This document shows positions 1 to 15,246 of a stretch of DNA of 64,000 bases, one piece after another. Within the stretch, counting starts at the first letter, position 1, and each line of letters opens with the position of its first letter. The notes beneath the pieces are model-generated. The model saw nothing but the letters and a program-made list of their open reading frames with translations, did not search any database and was not told the origin of the DNA. This DNA is from Candidatus Daviesbacteria bacterium (GTDB lineage: Bacteria > Patescibacteriota > Microgenomatia > Daviesbacterales > UBA10151). The stretch lies in the NCBI GenBank assembly GCA_030648645.1, contig JAUSHL010000038.1:3657-67656 (forward strand). Reading direction: 5' to 3'. The position numbers were made by a program, and so were the translations under genes.

Positions 1-12
1 GTAGCTCATAAT

Positions 13-510
13 TTGGAAATATCTCCCCCCAAATTTACCTCGCCGATAGGCGGGCCAAAACTAGTCAGAATAGCTCCCAGAATTTTACCTCCCCAACAAC
101 CCATACTTCCCCCATTACCCCAACCTATTCCTCAACCTGTAATTACCATTCCTCTACCACCAAAATTTACACCCTCAACTCCAGTTGTCACTATCGCCGA
201 AAAACCAAAAATGGTGCAAAAGTCTCTGGTTTTAACATCTTTACCCAATGTAGTCAATGGTATTGTGACTGATTTTTCCGGCAATTATATTGAAAATGTG
301 ATTGTGATTATTCACAATCAAGATGGAATTCCGGTTAGAGCCTCCAAAACCAATAAACTAGGTCAATTTTCCGGTGCCACTCCGCTTCCGGCCGGTCTTT
401 ATAATGTCACTTTTGAAAAAGAAGGATTAAGTTTTGAAACTTTACAGATTAATTTAAATAATGAAATTATGCCGGCCTTAAGTATTCAACCAATGAAAGG
501 AATCTCGTGA
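13..510 (+). CDS. Pro-rich protein with C-terminal carboxypeptidase-regulatory-like beta-sandwich motif; first visible gene of a T4SS-like operon (true N-terminus may lie outside window)
   Basis: ORF track; long PQP/PxP low-complexity stretch then VVNGIVTDFSGNYIENVIVII...GLYNVTFEKEG resembling CarbopepD_reg-like folds; stop overlaps GTG start of next gene (GTGA). Confidence 0.3.
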   Translation: MEISPPKFTSPIGGPKLVRIAPRILPPQQPILPPLPQPIPQPVITIPLPPKFTPSTPVVTIAEKPKMVQKSLVLTSLPNVVNGIVTDFSGNYIENVIVIIHNQDGIPVRASKTNKLGQFSGATPLPAGLYNVTFEKEGLSFETLQINLNNEIMPALSIQPMKGIS

Positions 511-1262
511 ATTCTTCCCAAAATTTCATACCAATTAAAAATATTCAGGACGATTTAGTTTTTTTGAATGATGGTGCAGCTAGTATGGTAATTTCCACTT
601 CAGCTGTAAATTTTGGATTATTATTTGAAACTGAACAAATTTCTATTATTGAATCATTTGCCGGTTTTTTAAATTCTTTGTCTTTTCCAATTCAAATTGT
701 AATTTTATCTCATCGGTTAGATATCTCTTCATATTTAAAAACATTAGACAAAGCTCAAAGTTTACAAACTAACCCCAAGCTAAAAGAATTAACCGCCCAT
801 TATCATCAATTCATTGAAAGTATTATTAAAGAAAATGATGTTTTAGATAAAAAATTTTATGTTTGCCTCAATGTTGGATCTGCTGAACTGGGACTATTAT
901 CAAAAAGCATTGCTGATACCAGTAGAAAAGCTTTTACTCTACTATCCCCCAGAAGAGATCATATTATCCGTCAATTAGGACGAATGGGGCTCAAAGCCAG
1001 ACAACTAACCACTAAAGAGCTCATTAAGCTCTTTTATGTGGTTTACAACGACTTGGAAGATATCATAATCGAGGAACCTACCTCACCAAATCCAGGCGGG
1101 ACTGCAAAAATTCCTACTCCAACTATCCCAACTCCACCTCCGGTTTTACAACCTGCTGTTTTACCTGTTGTTCCACCTCCTCAATCCATACCTATATCCA
1201 CACCCCAACCAATTAGCAGATCTGCGCCTTTTATTGTGGAGGAGTTAAATGATGACAACTGA
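507..1262 (+). CDS. VirB4-N-terminal-domain-like protein (resembles the N-terminal region of Gram-positive TrsE/TcpF/PrgJ-type conjugation ATPases) with Pro-rich C-terminal tail
   Basis: Motif IKNIQDDLVFLNDGAASMVISTSAVNFGLL resembles start of VirB4/TrsE proteins; overlaps downstream ATPase gene by 14 nt; ends in PTPTIPTPPPVLQPAVLPVVPPP tail. Confidence 0.4.
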   Translation: MNSSQNFIPIKNIQDDLVFLNDGAASMVISTSAVNFGLLFETEQISIIESFAGFLNSLSFPIQIVILSHRLDISSYLKTLDKAQSLQTNPKLKELTAHYHQFIESIIKENDVLDKKFYVCLNVGSAELGLLSKSIADTSRKAFTLLSPRRDHIIRQLGRMGLKARQLTTKELIKLFYVVYNDLEDIIIEEPTSPNPGGTAKIPTPTIPTPPPVLQPAVLPVVPPPQSIPISTPQPISRSAPFIVEELNDDN

Positions 1263-2988
1263 CCCTAAAAAAAATACTGTTGATTTTTCTTTGGCCGATG
1301 CCATTGCTCCTTTGGAAATTGAGGTAGATTTCGCTCATTTAAGATTAAATCAAACACTATACCGTACTTTTTTTGTTTCAGGCTACCCACGATTCGTTGC
1401 CCCAAATTGGCTGGAACCTTTAATTTCTTTTGAACATTCTTTAAATGTTTCAATGTTTATTTACCCGACTAAATCAGCCGGAGTTTTAGGTGAGTTAAAG
1501 CGAAAAATTGCCGAGATGGAAGCCACTATTCAAACCGATTCCGATCGCGGCAGGGAAATAGATCCGGCAGTATTGGCTTCGTTAGAAGATGCACAAGAGT
1601 TACAGGCACAAATGGTCCGCGGTGCCGAAAGATTTTTTCAATTTAGTTTATATGTCACTGTACCTGCGCAGAATAAAGAAGAATTAAATAATATTTCTAA
1701 ACTCGTGGAATCAACTCTGGGAAGTATCTCTATTACCACTCATCCTGTGACCTTACAGATGACTGAAGGTTTTTCTTCAACTGTTCCTTTGGGTGAAAAT
1801 CCCTTGTATCTAACTCATAACATGGATACAACGTCCTTAGCCACAACATTTCCTTTTACAACCTCAGAACTTACTTCACCTGAAGGAGTGGTTTATGGAA
1901 TCAATGAACACAATGATTCTTTAATTATTTATGACCGGTTTGCCGGAGAAAACGCCAATTCAGTGATACTTGCTACCTCAGGATCCGGCAAATCCTATTT
2001 TATAAAATTGGAAGCTTTAAGGTCATTAATGCTGGGAACAGATGTTATTATCATTGATCCGGAAAAAGAATATGCTCATTTGGCAGAAGCGGTTGGTGGT
2101 GACTATATTAATTTTTCTACCTCCTCTCCTGTTAAAATTAATCCTTTTGATTTGCCTTCTCCAACAACAGAGTCACAAGGTGAAGATGAGTTGGGTAGAA
2201 AAATATTATCGTTGATGGGATTTTTAAAATTGGTTTTAGGTGATCTGAATGCTAATGAAACAGCAATGCTGGATAGGGCAATTAATACTACTTACAGATT
2301 AAAAGGAATTACCAAATCAGCAGATTATCAACAGGGTATGCAACTGCCTTTAATGGAGGATTTATATAAGGTACTAATTGGCATGGAAGATGCGATGTCC
2401 CAAAGTTTGGCCCTGCGACTCGAAAGATTTATCAAAGGATCACTGGCCGGTATTTTTTCTGCCCAGTCAAATGTGCAGATTAATAATCAACTCACAGTAT
2501 TTTCAGTCAGGGATTTACCGGAATCCTTAAGACCATTGGCAATGTATCTAATTTTGGATTATATCTGGACCAAAATCAGATTTGAACTTAAAAAAAGAAT
2601 ACTAATCGTTGATGAAGCTTGGTACATGATGAAATATCCTGATTCGGCAGCATTCTTAGTAGAACTTGTGAAAAGAGCCAGAAAATATTATTTGGGAGTA
2701 ACAACGATCTCACAGGATGTAGAAGATTTTTGGGGAGAAAATAAAGGTAAGGAAATAATTTCCAACTCTGCTATGCAGGTACTATTTAAACAAGCTCCGG
2801 TTTCGATTGAAAGAATTGGAGACACTTTTAATTTATCTCAAGGAGAAAGAAGGTTACTACTTTCAGCAGGAGTTGGAAGAGGGATTTTTTTTGCCGGTAA
2901 TGTTCATGTAGCAATGAGAGTAGTAGCCTCTGAGGAGGAACATAAATTAATTACCACTAAACCGGAAGAGATCATTAAAGCAACATGA
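1249..2988 (+). CDS. virB4: VirB4/TraC/TrsE-family type IV secretion (conjugal transfer) ATPase
   Basis: Walker A ATSGSGKSYF, Walker B ILIVDEAWYM, conserved N-region YRTFFVSGYPRFVAPNWLEPL typical of the VirB4 family; operon with neighbours. Confidence 0.75.
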   Translation: MMTTDPKKNTVDFSLADAIAPLEIEVDFAHLRLNQTLYRTFFVSGYPRFVAPNWLEPLISFEHSLNVSMFIYPTKSAGVLGELKRKIAEMEATIQTDSDRGREIDPAVLASLEDAQELQAQMVRGAERFFQFSLYVTVPAQNKEELNNISKLVESTLGSISITTHPVTLQMTEGFSSTVPLGENPLYLTHNMDTTSLATTFPFTTSELTSPEGVVYGINEHNDSLIIYDRFAGENANSVILATSGSGKSYFIKLEALRSLMLGTDVIIIDPEKEYAHLAEAVGGDYINFSTSSPVKINPFDLPSPTTESQGEDELGRKILSLMGFLKLVLGDLNANETAMLDRAINTTYRLKGITKSADYQQGMQLPLMEDLYKVLIGMEDAMSQSLALRLERFIKGSLAGIFSAQSNVQINNQLTVFSVRDLPESLRPLAMYLILDYIWTKIRFELKKRILIVDEAWYMMKYPDSAAFLVELVKRARKYYLGVTTISQDVEDFWGENKGKEIISNSAMQVLFKQAPVSIERIGDTFNLSQGERRLLLSAGVGRGIFFAGNVHVAMRVVASEEEHKLITTKPEEIIKAT

Positions 2989-4607
2989 ATGAACAAAATC
3001 AATTTTCTGCAAAATTATTACAAAACACTAAGGATTTAGTTTCCCTTTATAATACCGACAGTGAATTTAAGAAAGTCTTCAATAGGTTAGTGACTGTTCC
3101 TAAAGTAACATATAAAGGACAACTTCTGCGTACTTACGTTCACATAATTGCTGTCACTACTCCTAAATATTATCCGTTTGAAAGAAAGGTTGGTAATTCA
3201 CCGGAAAAATATGAGGAGCTATTCACTTCTTTTTATAAAGATCCACGGGGATATTCTGTGCTTGCAAAAAATTTAACAGATATTAAAAATGGAAAATATT
3301 CTTTACCTTTGACTCCTCAGGAACTAAAACTTCTGCAGGAATTAGATAAAATGCCGGATGATAATTCCAAATTATCTGCCGGTGATAAAAAGAAAAAGGA
3401 AGAAATTATTACCAAAATATCCGGAGGTTCCGGACATACTGATCAGAAAATCGCTGAAGAAAATAAAATTAAAGAAGACAAAGAAAAACAGGAACAAACA
3501 CAGACAGAGGAGCAAAAACCGGCAGAAAAAACCGAAGAAAAAGTAGTCGAAACACCGGTAATAATTGTTCCGGAAACCTCAGGCTTAAAAGATGTTAATG
3601 GTGAGCCTTTAAAGGTTTACAATCCTCAACCTATTTCCGCAATCACTCCTCCCATTATTATTCCTACTATCACTTCTATTCCGATGTCTGATTCTGCCCC
3701 ATCCGGCTCTTCTTCTGCCTCTGGGCCATCCTTTCATCTTCCTTCAGTCCGTCTTCCTTCAAGTGTTAAAGAGGGTTTAAAAAACAGTATGTCAAAAGCT
3801 AAAATATCTGCCGGTAATTTTTTAAAGAAAACTTTCCCAAAAGCTTCAAAGGGTATATTAAAAGGCTTAGGACTGGGAGCAAAAACAGCTGCCGGACTGG
3901 GAGCCAAAGCGGGATTGGCTGCCACCGGAGTTGGTGCACCTGTCGCTGCCGCTTTAATGGCACCAGATATTATTAAAGCCGGATTAAAAATTGCAAAATA
4001 TGTTGCCATTATTGTTGGAGCAATTATATTTTACTTTTTATTTAGTGATGTAAACCAAACAGGTTCACTATTTTCTCCCGGTACAATCACTGAATCAGCC
4101 GTTTTGCCACCGGAAGACACATATATCGCCTCCTGTCCTGCCTCAGGAAAAATAAGTTACCCTTCATATCGTGAAAATGGTCATTGCTCCGAAGGCTATG
4201 GTTTTGGTTGTCCTTGCACTCCGGTCGGACAGGGAAGACGGGCCAATGCCATCGATGTTTACACAAATAATCAAAGCATTATTCTGCCAAAAATCGATGA
4301 ACAAAATGTTCAATGGCAATTAATTGCCAAAAATTATCCGGTTAATAGTTCGGAAGGTGGGGGGTTTGGAGATACTTTTAAAGCATCCGTGGGAGGTGAT
4401 ACTTGGTTTTTAGATTTAATCCATCTTCAATCAATCAATCTTGAAACAAATATATTGTATCCATCCGGACAATCTATTGCCCAATCTGACGGACCAATTG
4501 TTCATATTAGTATTGGTAAAAATATTCAAGATCCGGTAGTTATTAGTCCCGGCAGTAGTTATGATTGTTCACCTAATTGGATTCCGGCTGATTTTATGTG
4601 TCAATAA
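2985..4607 (+). CDS. T4SS-operon membrane protein: K/E-rich N-domain, Pro/Ser-rich linker, single TM segment, Cys-rich C-terminal extracytoplasmic domain (possible hydrolase)
   Basis: ORF track; hydrophobic stretch ...AKYVAIIVGAIIFYFLF; C-terminal region with many Cys/His (GHCSEGYGFGCPCT...); 4-nt overlap with virB4 stop. Confidence 0.3.
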   Translation: MNEQNQFSAKLLQNTKDLVSLYNTDSEFKKVFNRLVTVPKVTYKGQLLRTYVHIIAVTTPKYYPFERKVGNSPEKYEELFTSFYKDPRGYSVLAKNLTDIKNGKYSLPLTPQELKLLQELDKMPDDNSKLSAGDKKKKEEIITKISGGSGHTDQKIAEENKIKEDKEKQEQTQTEEQKPAEKTEEKVVETPVIIVPETSGLKDVNGEPLKVYNPQPISAITPPIIIPTITSIPMSDSAPSGSSSASGPSFHLPSVRLPSSVKEGLKNSMSKAKISAGNFLKKTFPKASKGILKGLGLGAKTAAGLGAKAGLAATGVGAPVAAALMAPDIIKAGLKIAKYVAIIVGAIIFYFLFSDVNQTGSLFSPGTITESAVLPPEDTYIASCPASGKISYPSYRENGHCSEGYGFGCPCTPVGQGRRANAIDVYTNNQSIILPKIDEQNVQWQLIAKNYPVNSSEGGGFGDTFKASVGGDTWFLDLIHLQSINLETNILYPSGQSIAQSDGPIVHISIGKNIQDPVVISPGSSYDCSPNWIPADFMCQ

Positions 4608-4625
4608 TGTATAATAATAAATAAG

Positions 4626-5105
4626 ATGCCAAAACTTAATTTAAAACAAATTATTATTGCAATTGTCACAATAATTGGAGCATTACTGATCTTAATTTTT
4701 GGCAGAGGGTTATATTCTTCCCCACCAGCTTCTCAAAAAAACACAGCAGTAAAATCTGCCCAAACAGAGACAAAAGATGAAAATAATAAAGAAATAAAAG
4801 TAGTTTCCACTAACCCTGAAGATCTGGACGGCTCAACAATTTTACCCAACCAAACCATCGAAATAACTTTCAATCAGCCAATGGAAAACAGAGGTGAATT
4901 TAAAAATAAAATTGAACCTCCCGCAGATTATGAAATCAAGCTTTCTGATGACCGGAAAACTGCCAAAATTATTTTAGCCAAACCATTTAAATTAGGCACA
5001 GGTTATACTTTATTTATAAAATCTGATACAAAATTCGATGGAAAGAAAACTTTAGATAAAGAAATAATTTATCATTTTAATACAATATCATACAAAGGAG
5101 TTTAA
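4626..5105 (+). CDS. small secreted/membrane-anchored protein (N-terminal TM, possible Ig-like domain)
   Basis: N-terminal hydrophobic IIIAIVTIIGALLILIF; last gene of same-strand cluster. Confidence 0.3.
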   Translation: MPKLNLKQIIIAIVTIIGALLILIFGRGLYSSPPASQKNTAVKSAQTETKDENNKEIKVVSTNPEDLDGSTILPNQTIEITFNQPMENRGEFKNKIEPPADYEIKLSDDRKTAKIILAKPFKLGTGYTLFIKSDTKFDGKKTLDKEIIYHFNTISYKGV

Positions 5106-5169: not shown

Positions 5170-6270
5170 TCAACTTAGATTCACCGGCATTATAATATAT
5201 TGTAACCCCTCTTCTCCAATTGGTTTAATTAAAGTCGCAGATAAAATCCCGGAAAATTCCATTACTACCTTTGTGGTATTTAAATTAGAAAAAGCATCAA
5301 TTAAAAACTTAGTATTAAAAGCAATAGCAATATCTTCTCCCTCTTTTTCTGCTTCAAATTGTTTTTCCTGACTCCCCAACTCTTTTGCCTCAGAACTTAA
5401 AATAATTTTTCCCTCCAGACAATTTAATTTAACAATATTGGCTTCATTTCGGGAAAACACAGCTGCCAATTTTACTGCTTTCAAAAATCCACTTCTGTCT
5501 AAAATAACTTTAGTAATTACTTTTTCCGGAATAATTTTTTCCCAAGCCGGAAATTGTCCTTCAATCAAGCGGGAGGATACTTGGGTATTACCAAAAGAAA
5601 AAATCATTTGATTATTATCTTCCGACACGGCAATTTTAACCAAATCAGCAGAATCTTCTGAAATTAAACGGACAATTTCTTCAAAAGTCCTCTTTGGCAC
5701 TAAAGCTTTAAAAGAAGATGTTTCGGCAATCGGCACAATTTTATGTGCCAGACGATAACCGTCGGTGGCAACCAATTGTAGTTTTTTATCTTTTATCTCC
5801 GTTAAAATTCCGGTTAAAGTTGGTCTGCCATCATCCATGGCGGCGGCAAAAATAATTTCCGGCAAAGATTTAACTAAAATTTCCGATTCAATTGAAACTG
5901 TATCTTTCCCAAGTAAAGGAATTGATGGAAATTCCAAAGCCGAAATACCGTTTAATTTGGAAGAAAAAGTCGGAGTAGAAATTTCTATTTGATCATTACT
6001 TCCACTTATTTCAATTTTTTCACCTGATAAATTAGCAATTACTTCCACAAAAGTTTTAGCCGGCACTGTCACTTCTCCTTCTTCTAAAATTTCGGCATTA
6101 ATAAATTTTACTACGCCAATTTCTAAGTTTGTGGAAGAAAGTTTTAATTTTCCGGAAGAAGCCTGAACTAAAACATTGCCCAAAACCGGAAGTTGTGCAC
6201 GCACACCAGTTGATCTGGCGACAGCTTGCAGTGTGGGTATTAAATCCTGTTGTAAGATTATAAATTTCAT
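5170..6270 (-). CDS. dnaN: DNA polymerase III beta subunit (sliding clamp)
   Basis: N-terminus MKFIILQQDLIPTLQAVARSTGVRAQLPVLGNVLV typical of DnaN; 366 aa; adjacent to dnaA. Confidence 0.9.
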   Translation of the reverse strand: MKFIILQQDLIPTLQAVARSTGVRAQLPVLGNVLVQASSGKLKLSSTNLEIGVVKFINAEILEEGEVTVPAKTFVEVIANLSGEKIEISGSNDQIEISTPTFSSKLNGISALEFPSIPLLGKDTVSIESEILVKSLPEIIFAAAMDDGRPTLTGILTEIKDKKLQLVATDGYRLAHKIVPIAETSSFKALVPKRTFEEIVRLISEDSADLVKIAVSEDNNQMIFSFGNTQVSSRLIEGQFPAWEKIIPEKVITKVILDRSGFLKAVKLAAVFSRNEANIVKLNCLEGKIILSSEAKELGSQEKQFEAEKEGEDIAIAFNTKFLIDAFSNLNTTKVVMEFSGILSATLIKPIGEEGLQYIIMPVNLS

Positions 6271-6354
6271 ATTTTTATAATGAGTATAATTTTAAATTTT
6301 AAATTTTAAATTTTAAAATTGCTTTAAAATTTTAATTTTGGATTTTAAAATTAC

Positions 6355-6816
6355 TCATTTTCCTCTGGTGACAAACCCATGTACTTCTTCTTCACTAACT
6401 TTAATCAATCTAAAATTAACTCTCCCGGTTGTAATTAGGTTTTTAATGTGTTTTTCCTCTTCTGTCAAGACATGAAAATTTCCTGACTTTACTTCAATAA
6501 AATCAATTCTCTCATTATTTTTAATACCAATAAAATCTACAGGCTGACCTAAAGGAATAATCCGGTCATAATCATATCTAAGTTCAGCATAAGTTAAAAG
6601 CTCAGCCATTTTCCCCTTTTGCGGATTAATTGATCCCTGAATAGTTTGCAATACTCTGGCTGGTAAATCCTGTAATCCTTTGTACAGATCAATTAAATCA
6701 GTTGGAATATCACTCCCACCCTTGCGGTGAAGCCTGCCAAACAAATAAGCTACCAATAAGGCTAAAATACCTATTAAAATGTAAATAAAAGTTTGATCCA
6801 TTGTTAGTTTGTCCAC
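6355..6816 (-). CDS. membrane-anchored protein with putative PD-(D/E)xK nuclease-like fold
   Basis: N-terminal TM helix; PVDFIGI...(11 aa)...DFIEVKSG resembles D...(D/E)xK core of Hjc/Mrr-like nucleases; sits between dnaA and dnaN. Confidence 0.3.
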   Translation of the reverse strand: MDKLTMDQTFIYILIGILALLVAYLFGRLHRKGGSDIPTDLIDLYKGLQDLPARVLQTIQGSINPQKGKMAELLTYAELRYDYDRIIPLGQPVDFIGIKNNERIDFIEVKSGNFHVLTEEEKHIKNLITTGRVNFRLIKVSEEEVHGFVTRGK

Positions 6817-7124
6817 ATAGAGCCTGAACTACTTTTTGTAATTAATAAAATAGTAGTAGTATTTATAGGCAGTGTTGATAAGTGTATAAATAGGGTATAT
6901 TTATGAGTAATTGATTGGTGGATAAGCATAGAATCATTTTACAGCTTCAACGAACAACAAACAACAGTCTGTTTACTCTCGAGCTTTTGTCTTATTTTCG
7001 TGTGTAAAAAGTATAGTCAACTTGGGGATAAGTTAGTGGATAACTTCATGTGTAATGTGGAAAACTCTGGAAGAATGAAGAATGAAGAATGAAGAATGAA
7101 GAATTAAGAATTAAGAATTAAGAA
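6808..7124. promoter_or_regulatory. dnaA-dnaN intergenic region with a cluster of DnaA-box-like 9-mers; candidate oriC segment
   Basis: TTGTCCACA (6808-6816), TGTTGATAA (6873-6881, reverse of TTATCAACA), GTGGATAAG (~6919), GGGATAAG (~7025), TGGATAAC (~7037); AT-rich; heptamer tandem repeat at 7071-7127. Confidence 0.6.
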
Positions 7125-7127
7125 TTA
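7071..7127. repeat. 7-nt tandem repeat (AAGAATG x3 then AAGAATT x4) abutting dnaA stop codon
   Basis: Directly visible: gaagaatgaagaatgaagaatgaagaattaagaattaagaattaagaatta. Confidence 0.9.
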
Positions 7128-8459
7128 ATCCAATAATTTTTGCTTTATCTCTCCAATAATTTTTTGAATTTCACTGTCTGTATTTAAAATTACCCCAATT
7201 TTTTCTACGCCGTGCATAATAGTTGTGTGATCTCTTCCTCCCAACATTTCACCGATCTTTTCATAAGGTAGTTTACAGTCTTGATATAAGATATACATAG
7301 CAATCTGACGGGATCTGACGAGATCTTTTTTACGGTTTGGTCCCACTAAATCTGCCATTTTAATATCAAAATATTGATTAATACCGGCTAAAACCTTTTT
7401 TTGATCAATTTTAAAGCCACTGGTTACACTTACTTTTCCCAACAGAAATCGGACATTTTCCTCATTAAATTCTTTCCCTGTGAGTTTTAAGGTTTGAATA
7501 ATCTGCATTAATTTACCTTCTAACTCACGCCCATTGGTAGAGATATTTTCAGCAATTAAAGTTAAACAATTTTCCGGAATATCATCCCCTTTTTCCTTAC
7601 ATTTAGCCTTTAAAATTGCGACCCTAGTATCAAAATCAGGAAGTTGAATATCAACCATCATTCCTCCCTGAAAACGGGAAGCCAAACGGGGTTCTAATTT
7701 CTGAATTTCATGAGGAGGACGGTCGGCTGTGACAATAATTTGGATATTTTTACCTTGTAGATCATTAAAAGTGTGAAAAAATTCTTCCTGTGTTGAATCA
7801 CGGCCGGATAAAAATTGGACATCATCAATTAGTAATAAATTACAGCTCCTATATTTAGTTCTAAATTGGGTCATACTTTTGGTCTGAATCCCCTGTACTA
7901 AATCATTGGTAAATTGCTCCAGTGGTGAGTAAATTATTTTTAAATTAGGATTTTTTTTAAGAAGAGCGTGTCCTACACCGACCATTAAATGAGTCTTTCC
8001 TACTCCGGTTCCGCCATATAAAAATAAAGGATTGTAAGAAAGTCCGGGATTGGCAATGACAGCTTGGGCTGCAGCATAGGCTAGATTGTTAGAAAGTCCA
8101 ACCACAAAATTCTCCAGAGAATATTTGGGATTTAAGTTGGTAATATTAGTTTTTGGGGTACTGGAAAATAAATTTAGTTCAAAATTATCATCTTCCGGAT
8201 TTTCTTCAGAGCGAGATTTAGTACTGCTCACTCTCAAATCAATTGGAATGGGCTTACCTAGGATCTGTTTTACAGCTTCTTCTAATACATCCTGATGTTT
8301 AGTATGGATTTCCTGCTTGATAAAATGAGTTGCTACAAAAATCACAAATTTTCCATCCACTTCCCCATCACAACTAGCCTTAGCAAACCACATTTTGTAA
8401 TTTATCGGAGAAACCTGATCTTTTATTATTTCCAGTACTTTATGCCATTCTTTATTCAT
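7125..8459 (-). CDS. dnaA: chromosomal replication initiator protein DnaA
   Basis: AAA+ Walker A GGTGVGKTHL, DnaA box-binding C-terminal domain; 444 aa; followed by dnaN. Confidence 0.95.
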   Translation of the reverse strand: MNKEWHKVLEIIKDQVSPINYKMWFAKASCDGEVDGKFVIFVATHFIKQEIHTKHQDVLEEAVKQILGKPIPIDLRVSSTKSRSEENPEDDNFELNLFSSTPKTNITNLNPKYSLENFVVGLSNNLAYAAAQAVIANPGLSYNPLFLYGGTGVGKTHLMVGVGHALLKKNPNLKIIYSPLEQFTNDLVQGIQTKSMTQFRTKYRSCNLLLIDDVQFLSGRDSTQEEFFHTFNDLQGKNIQIIVTADRPPHEIQKLEPRLASRFQGGMMVDIQLPDFDTRVAILKAKCKEKGDDIPENCLTLIAENISTNGRELEGKLMQIIQTLKLTGKEFNEENVRFLLGKVSVTSGFKIDQKKVLAGINQYFDIKMADLVGPNRKKDLVRSRQIAMYILYQDCKLPYEKIGEMLGGRDHTTIMHGVEKIGVILNTDSEIQKIIGEIKQKLLD

Positions 8460-8647: not shown

Positions 8648-9298
8648 ATGACAAATAATGATTTAGTTTATGGATTTTTAGACGAGTCTCCTAATTTACA
8701 GGATAAATTTGCTTTCTTTTCAGTAGTTATTATATTAAGCACTAACCCAGATGAGAAAAGTTATAGATCAATTTTTAAAAAAACTCGCAAGAATGTTCTT
8801 AAAAAGAAACAGAAAGAAATCCCTGAATTAAAGTTTGCCAATTCTACTCCTCAAGTAAGAATTAAAATACTGAAGGCCATTGGTAAAAGATCTATTAAAA
8901 TATCTGCTTATATTTTGGATAAAGCAGGAAGACGTATACCAGATACGCCTGAAAATTATGGTATTGTGGCTGGTTTTGCGATTAGTGAGGTATTAAAGAA
9001 ATACCCTGTTATTGTTTTAACTTTTGATAAAAAATATACCAAAGTTAAAGATCAAGAAGAAGTGGAGAGAGTAACATTAAAAGTTGTAGCTAAAGTTTTA
9101 AAGAAAGGTGTATTACAGTTTAAGGAGCATGGTGATAGCAAAGCAAACAGTATACTTCAAATGGCAGATTTTGTAGCTGGGGCAGTAAGTTATAAATACA
9201 ATTTGAATGATAAGAGCTACTGGGAGTTGATAAAGGATTTAATTGAACAGGAAAATAAGGAATCATGGATAGATATTAAAGCAATTTATAAGCAATAA
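8648..9298 (+). CDS. DUF3800-like protein (accessory cassette gene)
   Basis: N-terminal VYGFLDESPN resembles the Y-x-DESG signature of DUF3800; bracketed by repeat modules. Confidence 0.3.
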   Translation: MTNNDLVYGFLDESPNLQDKFAFFSVVIILSTNPDEKSYRSIFKKTRKNVLKKKQKEIPELKFANSTPQVRIKILKAIGKRSIKISAYILDKAGRRIPDTPENYGIVAGFAISEVLKKYPVIVLTFDKKYTKVKDQEEVERVTLKVVAKVLKKGVLQFKEHGDSKANSILQMADFVAGAVSYKYNLNDKSYWELIKDLIEQENKESWIDIKAIYKQ

Positions 9299-9485
9299 AA
9301 AAGAATAGTCAATCCCTGGGCTCCGATTCTCACCGCCTTTTTCGAGGGTAAACCCCGATGGGTCTACTTTGCACGGAATAAGACCGCTATTGCTGGACTA
9401 GAGATCCCAGGACTTACTCGACTATTCTTGATTAAGATTGTACCAAATTTTCACCAATTTTTCAAGGCCCAGATTTTAAAATAAC

Positions 9486-9722
9486 TCAAGCAAAGGAAGG
9501 AAGTATAAGCTTATTTAGTTTCACTAAATATCTTGAACCCAAAATAAGTATTTTGGGTATAATCTAATTCAACTCAAGCTTGTAAAAATTCGTTGAATAT
9601 CTTGAATTCAAAATGAAGCATTTTGAATATAAACCAATTTAACTCGTCCACCAGTGGCGGACTCATTAAATAGTTTGAACCAAAAATTTGCAAATTTTTG
9701 GTATAAATAACTAGATCAATTT
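9486..9722. repeat. ~235-bp direct repeat copy 1 (three tandem -35/palindrome/-10-like modules plus a GC hairpin), left flank of the HEPN/MNT cassette
   Basis: Near-identical to 10586-10812; contains TTGAAC-ccaaaatNNNattttgg-gTATAAT style units. Confidence 0.85.
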
Positions 9723-9736
9723 TTGAGTTCTGGGAG

Positions 9737-10093
9737 TTATTGGATTTTATCTTTCACAAAGCTTGTAATTTCTTTAGCAAACTTATAAGCTTCTTCTGAT
9801 TTTTCCTTAGTAAAATGAATAAATTCTGAAAGATCTGGGTAGCGTGAAGGAATGTAATAGGTGTTAAGAGCAACACACTCGTTTCTTAAACTCTCAAAAG
9901 ACTGGTCACTTTTAATACATTCTTCAAGTAGTGCTCTTAAATCGTGAATTTTCTTGATGTCTTTTTCTTGACTAATCAAATAAGCTTTTAGAGCTTTTTC
10001 CACTGCTTGCTGGGATGTAAAACAAGCTCCATACCAAATTTTTCCTTCCAGACTATTTTTGTAACTATTCAGAGTTTCCCAGTAGACTGTCAT
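9737..10093 (-). CDS. HEPN domain protein (toxin component of HEPN/MNT pair)
   Basis: C-terminal YYIPSRYPD motif characteristic of HEPN proteins partnered with minimal nucleotidyltransferases; 118 aa. Confidence 0.6.
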   Translation of the reverse strand: MTVYWETLNSYKNSLEGKIWYGACFTSQQAVEKALKAYLISQEKDIKKIHDLRALLEECIKSDQSFESLRNECVALNTYYIPSRYPDLSEFIHFTKEKSEEAYKFAKEITSFVKDKIQ

Positions 10094-10157
10094 CGCGAGG
10101 GTCGAAACTTCGACCCGTGGCGATCTAATTAGATTGCTTCGCTACGCTCGCAATGAC
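10088..10157. mobile_element. MITE-like GC-rich palindromic element (tgtcatcgcgagg...ctcgcaatgac)
   Basis: Terminal inverted repeats shared with >10 other copies in window; its terminal tgtcat supplies the ATG of the HEPN gene. Confidence 0.6.
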
Positions 10158-10261
10158 GATTTTATTGGGAAGAACTAATTAGTTACCTATTTTTTGTCCA
10201 GGAAAGATCATCTAATGCATAATTAAGCCATTTCTGAGATGACTTATTTATTGATTTACGA

Positions 10262-10558
10262 TTATCCATATACAATTTTACCAGTCTCGTTAGCCTCTTT
10301 TATAAAAAGATTATCTAGTTTTGCTTTTTCGAATTCCTGGGGTGTTAACACAAATATGTCAACAGCAGTTACTGTTCTTAGAAGTAGATGTACTTGTTTT
10401 TGTCTTTCAAGAAAAGGCAGGGTAGTTTTTTTTATAACGACAAGATCTACATCACTATCTGAGCTGGGTTTACCATTAGCATAAGATCCAAAAAGAATTA
10501 TTTTTTCCGGGTTATAAGGCATAATTTGATCAATAATGTCTTGAACTACTGAATTCAT
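10262..10558 (-). CDS. minimal nucleotidyltransferase (MNT, antitoxin component of HEPN/MNT pair)
   Basis: LFGSYANGKPSSDSDVDLVVI = GS...D.D nucleotidyltransferase motif; 98 aa. Confidence 0.7.
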   Translation of the reverse strand: MNSVVQDIIDQIMPYNPEKIILFGSYANGKPSSDSDVDLVVIKKTTLPFLERQKQVHLLLRTVTAVDIFVLTPQEFEKAKLDNLFIKEANETGKIVYG

Positions 10559-10863: not shown

Positions 10864-11001
10864 ATGCCAAAGCGCACATATCAACCAAAAAAATTAAAAA
10901 GATTGCGAAAACATGGATTCATCAAAAGAATGGAAACTCGTGATGGACAAAAAGTTTTAAAAAGAAGAAGAGCCAGGGGTAGAAAAAAGTTGACGGTATA
11001 G
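10864..11001 (+). CDS. rpmH: 50S ribosomal protein L34 (absent from the ORF track because it is only 45 aa)
   Basis: Translates to [45 protein letters not shown], a classic L34; precedes rnpA. Confidence 0.9.
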
Positions 11002-14832: not shown

Positions 14833-15246
14833 ATGAACAAGATTATTATAAATACAGATGGTGGGTCGAGAGGTAATCCGGGTCCAGGTGCTTGTGCTTT
14901 TGTGATCTCGGATGAACATGGAAAACAAATTGCCGGAGAAGGGAAGTTCTTGGGTGTTTGTACCAATAATGAAGCCGAATATGAAGCAGTTATTTTGGCC
15001 TTTGAGTGGGTGGTAAATAATTTGGCAAATAATTTACCTGAGAATATAGCGTTCAAAGCCGATTCGAAATTAGTGGTAGAGCAACTTTCTGGCAGGTTCA
15101 AAGTCAAAAATCCTCGTATTGCAGTGTTACATGGGCGGGTGAGGGTATTGGAAAAAAATATGTCTGAAATTACTTACACTTATATTCCGCGTGAGGAGAA
15201 TTATCAGGCAGACAATCTGGTAAATCAAATCCTGGATCTTCAGTAA
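14833..15246 (+). CDS. rnhA: ribonuclease HI
   Basis: NTDGGSRGNPGPGACAFVI...TNNEAEYEAVILAFEW... matches RNase H catalytic DEDD core. Confidence 0.85.
   Translation: MNKIIINTDGGSRGNPGPGACAFVISDEHGKQIAGEGKFLGVCTNNEAEYEAVILAFEWVVNNLANNLPENIAFKADSKLVVEQLSGRFKVKNPRIAVLHGRVRVLEKNMSEITYTYIPREENYQADNLVNQILDLQ

Follow-up and report, generated by a model that had tools for sequence, protein, structure and literature searches.

A probable core operon of a Patescibacteria-type chromosomal type IV secretion system, with a separate TrsD-like gene, beside dnaN and dnaA in a Candidatus Daviesbacteria genome

The stretch of DNA analysed here, 64,000 nucleotides of contig JAUSHL010000038.1 from a Candidatus Daviesbacteria bacterium (assembly GCA_030648645.1; hereafter the window), begins with a run of five genes at nt 1 to 5105 that encode a VirB4-family ATPase and proteins related to components of type IV secretion systems (T4SS). 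A first-pass annotation made from the sequence alone had described these genes as a VirB4-type secretion or conjugation-like operon next to dnaN, with the N-terminal domain of VirB4 encoded separately. The window was evaluated by a six-frame list of open reading frames (ORFs) and by Pfam and NCBIfam profile scans of the translated products; the Pfam scan took in 36 window ORFs, among them all those of at least 300 aa apart from one that is antisense to groEL. For comparison, a set of 85 loci, made up of L001 to L005 and 80 further loci from species-representative genomes, was surveyed for ORFs and by hidden Markov models (HMMs).

The genes and features found are shown in Table 1. The six-frame list reproduced the ORFs at 13-510, 507-1262, 1249-2988, 2985-4607 and 4626-5105, all on the forward strand. 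The first-pass description of five co-directional, overlapping genes is right as to direction, and the gene-to-gene overlaps are 4, 14 and 4 nt, but the fifth gene is separated from the fourth by an 18-nt gap.

Table 1. Features at the start of the window and in the adjoining dnaN-dnaA region
Feature	Position (nt)	Strand	Basis or remark
PrgI/VirB3-like gene, 3' part, 169 codons	1..510	+	Frame open from base 1; 79% identity to orthologue
TrsD-like protein, 251 aa	507..1262	+	NCBIfam, Foldseek
PFIVEEL C-terminal peptide of the TrsD-like protein	1227..1247	+	Alignment A3; overlaps GGAGG ribosome-binding site of virB4
VirB4-family ATPase, 579 aa, without the first N-terminal subdomain	1249..2988	+	NF045971, Pfam, PDB 4ag5
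VirB4 Walker A	1972..1995	+	Motif position
VirB4 Walker B	2599..2616	+	Motif position
VirB1/PrgK-like membrane-anchored protein, 540 aa	2985..4607	+	Transmembrane prediction, shared N-terminal module, positional orthologues
Divergent LytM/M23-fold ectodomain, residues ~381-540 (predicted)	4125..4604	+	Predicted structure, conserved residues
Big_5 Ig-like membrane-anchored protein, 159 aa	4626..5105	+	Pfam Big_5, E 2.9e-8
dnaN	5170..6270	-	Pfam
Holliday-resolvase-like endonuclease	6355..6816	-	Pfam
dnaA	7125..8459	-	Pfam

The separately encoded VirB4 N-terminal domain

The 251-aa product had been said to resemble the N-terminal region of VirB4, and this was borne out by profile searches. It was matched by the NCBIfam models VirB4_plasma (the VirB4 of mycoplasma integrative and conjugative elements, ICEs) at positions 102-279 (E 7.5e-11), CD1110-family VirB4 at positions 2-173 (E 2.5e-5) and NF041427, TrsD/TraD, at positions 19-200 of 201 (E 5e-8). 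An AlphaFold2 model, built from an alignment of 47 homologues (alignment A3), was confident over residues 10-185 (predicted local distance difference test score, pLDDT, mostly >90), and when it was compared to the PDB with Foldseek, ranks 1 to 14 were all chains of TrwK/VirB4 of plasmid R388, with probabilities of 0.85 to 1.0. The alignment profile itself gave no significant sequence match when searched against the PDB. The protein is a homologue of the VirB4 N-terminal domain over its first ~185 residues, followed by a Pro-rich linker at residues ~186-240. A hypothetical protein with the identical sequence (100%) is known from a Candidatus Daviesbacteria metagenome-assembled genome (MAG) and carries a precomputed PF26593 (TraC-like) assignment (P0001). 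The 251-aa protein has 855 database homologues; the best 120 of these are almost all stand-alone proteins of ~220-340 aa, nearly all with precomputed PF26593.

The following 579-aa product is the ATPase core that the first-pass annotation took it to be. It matched NF045971, the CD1110-family VirB4 model, at positions 186-735 of 752 with a score of 378.5 bits against a curated cut-off of 325 (E 6e-113), as well as Pfam P-loop_TraG, AAA_10 and DUF87. A Walker A motif (ATSGSGKS) is present at residues 242-249 and a Walker B motif (ILIVDE) at 451-456, and the nearest solved structure is 4ag5, a VirB4 C-terminal domain (E 7e-42). The product does not span the whole of NF045971, leaving N-terminal positions 1-185 uncovered, and the 251-aa and 579-aa products occupy complementary stretches of this same model (2-173 and 186-735).

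The TrsD-like and virB4 ORFs overlap by 14 nt in different frames, as they might if a sequencing or assembly frameshift, or decay to a pseudogene, had broken a single VirB4 gene in two. We give this explanation practically no credence. It was found that the two are separate ORFs in 85 of the 85 independent loci, in different frames in 76 of them and with a modal overlap of 4 nt, and that a fused TrsD-VirB4 ORF is present in none of the 85; the junctions vary from a 155-nt overlap to a 191-nt gap. The virB4 ATG is preceded, 6 nt upstream, by GGAGG, and the 251-aa protein has a conserved C-terminal motif and a variable linker of its own, in addition to the stand-alone homologues described above. 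Furthermore, TrsD is recognised as a separate component in pGO1-type systems (PMC12102498). A frameshift artefact was therefore rejected on the comparative data, and because the genes are separate at every locus, with no fusion, the division of VirB4 between two genes is ancient and functional. The separate N-domain gene proposed by the first-pass annotation is thus real, is not peculiar to the window locus, and belongs to the known TrsD family that is also found in pGO1-type Gram-positive systems.

At two Candidatus Gottesmanbacteria loci (L078:2615-6274 and L079:8666-12370), the VirB4-matching ORF is ~1,220-1,235 aa, roughly double in length, which suggests that VirB4 is fused C-terminally to another module there.

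The TrsD-like protein ends with the peptide PFIVEEL. Among the 47 aligned sequences, E245 and E246 never vary, and conservation reaches at least 90% at P241, F242, V244 and L247. The motif PF[VI]VEEL follows a Pro-rich linker of variable length in at least 54 of the 85 loci, all of the Daviesbacteria type (L001-L053, L060 and L064), and is absent from more distant loci such as those of the Gottesmanbacteria type. We considered whether the VEE codons are kept merely as the Shine-Dalgarno sequence of virB4. This was rejected because the two Glu codons vary synonymously (GAGGAG at 19 loci, GAGGAA at 16, GAAGAA at 10 and GAAGAG at 9), and so the constraint on the peptide acts at the protein level. 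The peptide may be a docking motif of the TrsD-like protein, held on its linker as on a tether.

The first gene had been listed at 13-510. However, residues 1-169 of the fragment correspond to residues 119-289 of the 289-aa orthologue at L005, and because frame 1 is open from base 1 and the alignment begins at the very first codon, the TTG at nt 13 is not a genuine start and the ORF is the 3' end of a longer gene. The part within the window consists of a Pro-rich linker and a C-terminal CarboxypepD_reg Ig-like domain (32.9 bits, E 8e-8). The orthologues at L001, L002 and L005 match Pfam PrgI with 31-37 bits, relative to a cut-off of 27, and have N-terminal transmembrane segments, as do 76 of 81 upstream orthologues; by this comparison, the predicted N-terminal PrgI transmembrane hairpin is encoded upstream of the window. 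The fusion of PrgI to CarboxypepD_reg through a Pro-rich linker was seen at window 1-510, L001:8841-9998 and L005:211-1080.

The membrane-anchored protein encoded after virB4

The 540-aa protein consists of a conserved N-terminal cytoplasmic region, a charged, Pro/Ser-rich low-complexity region, a Gly/Ala-zipper with a transmembrane segment, and a 180-residue ectodomain. The transmembrane segment, at residues ~335-355 (nt ~3987-4049), is the single strong one predicted, and all six cysteines of the protein lie beyond it, in agreement with the Cys-rich ectodomain described in the first-pass annotation. The Pro-rich segments that had been pointed out in consecutive proteins were also found: the first-gene fragment and the tail of the 251-aa protein each have 15 Pro in 40 residues, and the middle of the 540-aa protein has 9 in 40.

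There was no Pfam or NCBIfam match to the 540-aa protein, and a homologue search with its full length gave 4 matches, swamped by low-complexity words. The ectodomain family was gathered by an exhaustive search of cluster representatives, which found it in 140 representatives only, mostly at the C terminus of proteins of 450-850 aa. The predicted structure of the ectodomain has the LytM beta-fold. In 121 family members, the residues aligned with His400, Asp424 and His507 of the window protein are 100% conserved and those aligned with Cys401 and His480 are 99% conserved; at residue 505, where the window protein has Ile, 84% of the family has His. This conserved set looks like the metal-binding and catalytic residues of M23 peptidases, with a 23-residue Cys-containing insert splitting the HxxxD motif.

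The position after virB4 was also compared between loci. The first gene after virB4 carries the LytM-like family in 27 of 65 loci. A Pfam scan of 20 other first genes found Peptidase_M23 in 5 (some with SLT), Amidase_2 in 2, CHAP in 1, Peptidase_C39_2 with or without SLT in 5, DUF11 with or without SLT in 3, and no match in 4. When the N-terminal and membrane module was made into an iterated HMM, 48 of 56 first genes after virB4 were recovered, regardless of the C-terminal domain. The position after virB4 is therefore that of a predicted wall hydrolase of the VirB1/PrgK type, which is anchored in the membrane and whose catalytic module can be swapped.

The C-terminal domains at this position (L006-L085) also include a GH5-like domain. 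In a close paralogue, P0123, the LytM-like domain is replaced by a region that is SLT-motif-like by eye, with no Pfam SLT match.

On this evidence, the 540-aa protein is a predicted VirB1/PrgK-like cell-wall hydrolase, and several observations weigh against that assignment. The ectodomain model is of moderate confidence (mean pLDDT 56) and was built on a 3-sequence alignment. Sequence similarity to M23 is no more than borderline: the M23 family PF01551 is not matched by the window protein and is matched by 1 of 27 family members (E 4e-4), and a comparison of the LytM-like alignment to PDB profiles was not significant, with a best M23 E value of 0.11. The canonical HxxxD spacing is missing, with 24 residues instead of 4 from H400 to D424, and HxH, which is present in 84% of the family, is replaced by IVH in the window copy. 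Because of these last two departures, the ectodomain is possibly non-catalytic.

It may instead be a degenerate module that binds peptidoglycan or has a regulatory or scaffolding part, as in PrgK-LytM, EnvC, DipM and SpoIIQ, and we take this possibility seriously without favouring it. The altered motifs are what such a module would show, the LytM domain of PrgK is a precedent in being inactive and regulatory (PMC11323569), and no second hydrolase domain was detected by Pfam in the 540-aa protein. In contrast, the near-complete conservation of H400, D424, H480 and H507, together with the prevalent His at 505, is typical of a retained metal site and unlike degenerate LytM domains, and the positional orthologues in sister genomes bear canonical, presumably active M23 domains.

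Gene order at the replication origin and identity of the system

The operon ends with the gene for the Big_5 protein, which has an N-terminal transmembrane segment (residues 3-32) and is encoded upstream of dnaN in most loci of the Daviesbacteria type. The dnaN neighbour reported in the first-pass annotation was confirmed by Pfam together with dnaA, and the genes at 5170..8459 mark the replication-origin region. In relatives with longer contigs, the order is fixed as PrgI-like with CarboxypepD_reg, TraC-like, VirB4, the 500-570-aa protein, sometimes a small protein, and Big_5, followed by dnaN, the resolvase and dnaA on the reverse strand and then rpmH-rnpA-yidC. L001-L003 and most of the 80 genome loci agree with the window in the order of dnaN, resolvase and dnaA. 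What lies further upstream is known from relatives, because the window starts within the PrgI-like gene: in L001-L003, three to five T4SS_pilin genes in an array and two large uncharacterised proteins are encoded 3-9 kb upstream, and T4SS_pilin was found by phmmer in at least 10 further loci.

At the more distant loci L054, L055, L068, L069 and L074, the hydrolase and Big_5 genes are missing from between virB4 and dnaN, which directly abut or overlap, and at L054 a LytM-like gene is located upstream on the opposite strand (1699-4401). Loci L010, L011, L013 and ~30 others have the Daviesbacteria-type synteny (PrgI-TrsD-VirB4-hydrolase-Big_5-dnaN-dnaA) in records titled "uncultured Gammaproteobacteria bacterium"; these titles on Daviesbacteria-type third-party annotation assemblies are probably mislabelled taxonomy.

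We evaluated whether the locus could be part of an integrated conjugative element, or of a conjugative plasmid in decay, that transfers DNA now or did so formerly. Among VirB4 models, the conjugative ones of the CD1110 and ICE types are those to which the window VirB4 is most similar, and the whole machinery is descended from a monoderm conjugation apparatus (PMC12102498). However, the genes are found in the same order against dnaN and dnaA in dozens of Daviesbacteria and Microgenomates genomes, which argues for vertical chromosomal inheritance rather than insertion of a mobile element, and the GC content of the operon is 36.7% compared to 34.1% for the window. As the first-pass annotation had noted for relaxases and VirD4-type coupling proteins, neither these nor an integrase turned up in the scan of 36 window ORFs; likewise, there was no relaxase or type IV coupling protein (T4CP) within 10 kb upstream in relatives, and relaxases are absent from most Patescibacteria T4SS clusters (PMC12102498). 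A mobile element was rejected on the conserved origin-proximal synteny, and we regard it as very unlikely that the locus is a conjugative element in either form.

Instead, window 1-5105 is probably the origin-proximal core operon of a Patescibacteria-clade chromosomal T4SS that arose from monoderm (MPF-FATA) conjugation machinery. The closest homologues all come from MAGs of Daviesbacteria, Microgenomates or Patescibacteria. In 2025, Quinonero-Coronel et al. described a VirB4 clade that is specific to Patescibacteria and has its origin in MPF-FATA systems (PMC12102498). In that description, TrsD is the commonest virB4-associated component, and PrgI/VirB3 homologues occur as well. Arrays of VirB2-like pilins are particularly frequent in Microgenomatia, there are essentially no relaxases, the genes for coupling proteins lie elsewhere, and the cluster is located near dnaA/dnaN in Paceibacteria and Microgenomatia (PMC12102498). 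The chromosomal site of the window operon and the TrsD-like gene adjoining virB4 match this description. The system was thus already described in 2023-2025, and the window locus is an ordinary example of it, not a new kind of system.

The function of such a system has been approached in Saccharibacteria. Wang et al. (2023) found by transposon sequencing that the T4SS (SEML1_0006-0019) and pilins of S. epibionticum are essential, and this T4SS has no recognisable relaxase or coupling protein (PMC10633639). A 2025 nomenclature review reports that a comEC deletion abolishes competence in S. epibionticum and yet is viable, and speculates that the system serves as a pilus conduit through which exchange with the host takes place (PMC12857230). 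A 2026 preprint describes tubular structures at the parasite-host interface that may be T4SS pili.

Candidate phyla radiation (CPR) bacteria lack nucleotide synthesis. This favours a DNA-uptake machine, ComB- or Ced-like, for natural transformation or nucleotide scavenging. The ATPase also gave weak partial matches to two DNA-import proteins of archaea, CedB (E 1e-13) and CedD (E 2.5e-6), and in the class ABY1 the T4SS genes adjoin comF, recG and radA (PMC12102498). However, the CedB and CedD matches are limited to the P-loop region and are far under cut-offs, and no competence genes were found beside the operon among the ORFs scanned. Furthermore, because comEC is dispensable and the T4SS essential in S. 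epibionticum (PMC12857230), the role of the T4SS is not ComEC-dependent DNA uptake. We therefore consider a DNA-uptake machine unlikely. The suggestion of the first-pass annotation that this is a minimal DNA-uptake, pilus or secretion apparatus of CPR bacteria holds in that the apparatus is non-conjugative and of the CPR kind (PMC12102498); DNA uptake is disfavoured by the Saccharibacteria genetics, and "minimal" is probably wrong, judging by the pilin arrays and two large proteins encoded upstream in relatives.

Because the homologous Saccharibacteria system is essential for epibiotic growth, has no recognisable relaxase or coupling protein and does not act through ComEC competence, the system most likely serves as a pilus and translocation device directed at the host, and not for conjugation.

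Some points weigh against the assignment and this role. The NF041427 score of the 251-aa product, 32.9 bits, is far under the curated cut-off of 200. The pilin, VirB6-like and other components would lie beyond the window, which begins inside the PrgI-like gene, and if the PrgI-CarboxypepD_reg protein forms a two-helix hairpin, its Ig-like domain and its N terminus would share one side of the membrane. In addition, to our knowledge, essentiality has been demonstrated for only one Saccharibacteria species, and we know of no experiment on any Microgenomates system.

Several genes beyond the operon were also observed in the window. There are additional genes at 8648-10558, between dnaA and rpmH (10864-11001); in L002, rpmH directly follows dnaA. 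These include a DUF3800 gene at 8648-9298 (forward strand), which is adjoined on the opposite strand by a match to the Rfam DUF3800-III RNA at 9302-9428 (52 bits), and two reverse-strand ORFs, at 9737-10093 (118 aa) and 10262-10558 (98 aa), that by eye resemble a HEPN/minimal-nucleotidyltransferase toxin-antitoxin pair. At 14833-15246, a 137-aa ORF with RVT_3/RNase H-like domains is located amid housekeeping genes.

Proposed mechanism and comparison with known systems

The N-terminal domain of the R388 VirB4 is in contact with VirB3 and with the membrane. A model can be proposed that builds on what was established here, namely the gene identities, the genuine split of VirB4, the folds and the conserved synteny; the contacts between proteins, the pilus, the activity of the hydrolase and the substrate transported are inferred. 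The PrgI/VirB3-like hairpin protein would be located in the membrane, and the cytoplasmic TrsD-like protein would provide in trans the first N-terminal subdomain that is absent from the 579-aa VirB4, probably staying attached by way of its flexible Pro-rich linker and PF[VI]VEEL end. A VirB4 hexamer would provide the power to assemble the channel and the VirB2-like pilins, whose genes lie a few kb upstream in relatives. The bitopic 540-aa protein would take the VirB1/PrgK/TraG role, with a LytM-fold wall-binding or wall-cleaving domain outside the membrane that may open or organise the peptidoglycan around the machine, and the Big_5 protein would be an extracytoplasmic accessory.

A more speculative extension of this model, which we think rather doubtful, is that the hydrolase targets the cell wall of the host, so that the T4SS would be a host-wall-breaching pilus conduit. 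Such targeting is one possible meaning of the turnover of the wall-degrading domain between closely related genomes. If this were true, the conduit would serve to take up or exchange material of the host, and host range would be determined by the hydrolase domain. In connection with this, the Pro-rich tether tipped with PF[VI]VEEL may act as a docking switch that regulates the split VirB4.

No T4SS before that of Patescibacteria had been shown to be essential to the cell that carries it, and it is a leading candidate for how these ultrasmall epibionts exploit their hosts. The locus described here sharpens the parts list for Microgenomates, in that components like VirB3 and VirB1 adjoin virB4, the one as a divergent fusion of PrgI with CarboxypepD_reg and the other as a LytM-like family that Pfam does not detect; standard profiles miss these forms or barely detect them. 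It also adds a modular hydrolase after virB4, and the terminal peptide of the TrsD-like protein provides a concrete handle for interaction studies.

Compared to the Patescibacteria-clade T4SS described previously (PMC12102498, PMC10633639), the window and its relatives share virB4 with an adjoining TrsD homologue, a PrgI/VirB3-like gene, arrays of VirB2-like pilins (in the relatives of the window), the absence of a nearby relaxase or coupling protein, the location beside dnaN/dnaA and a peptidase-type gene directly after virB4. The window differs in being the instance from Daviesbacteria (Microgenomatia). VirB3 and VirB1 homologues were reported to be poorly associated with virB4 in Microgenomatia (PMC12102498), whereas here both adjoin virB4, in divergent forms.

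The MPF-FATA systems of the plasmids pGO1, pSK41 and pIP501 (TrsC-TrsD-TrsE-TrsG; TraD-TraE-TraG) likewise encode, in this order, a VirB3-like protein, a small separate TrsD/TraD that is homologous to the VirB4 N terminus, VirB4 and a membrane-anchored wall hydrolase, and NF041427 aligned with the window protein over nearly its full length (19-200 of 201). They differ in being plasmid-borne and conjugative, with a relaxase and a T4CP and without pilins, and the TrsD match is remote (32.9 bits compared to 200). The Pro-rich tail with PF[VI]VEEL was found in the Daviesbacteria type only, among the loci examined here, a comparison that did not extend to TrsD/TraD proteins outside them.

PrgK of pCF10, a multidomain hydrolase of the VirB1 class (LytM structure 8S0U), has three ectodomains, LytM, muramidase and CHAP, and its LytM domain has none of the metal ligands. 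In contrast, the window protein has one ectodomain, with conserved His/Asp/His/His residues and the H...D pair interrupted by the insert. As for R388 TrwK/VirB4 with TrwM/VirB3 (7O41, 7O42, 8RTB), the model of the TrsD-like protein superposes on the N-terminal region of TrwK and the ATPase cores are homologous, whereas in R388 the N-domain and ATPase form one polypeptide within a diderm system that has an outer-membrane core complex, and the sequence identity is 9-14%.

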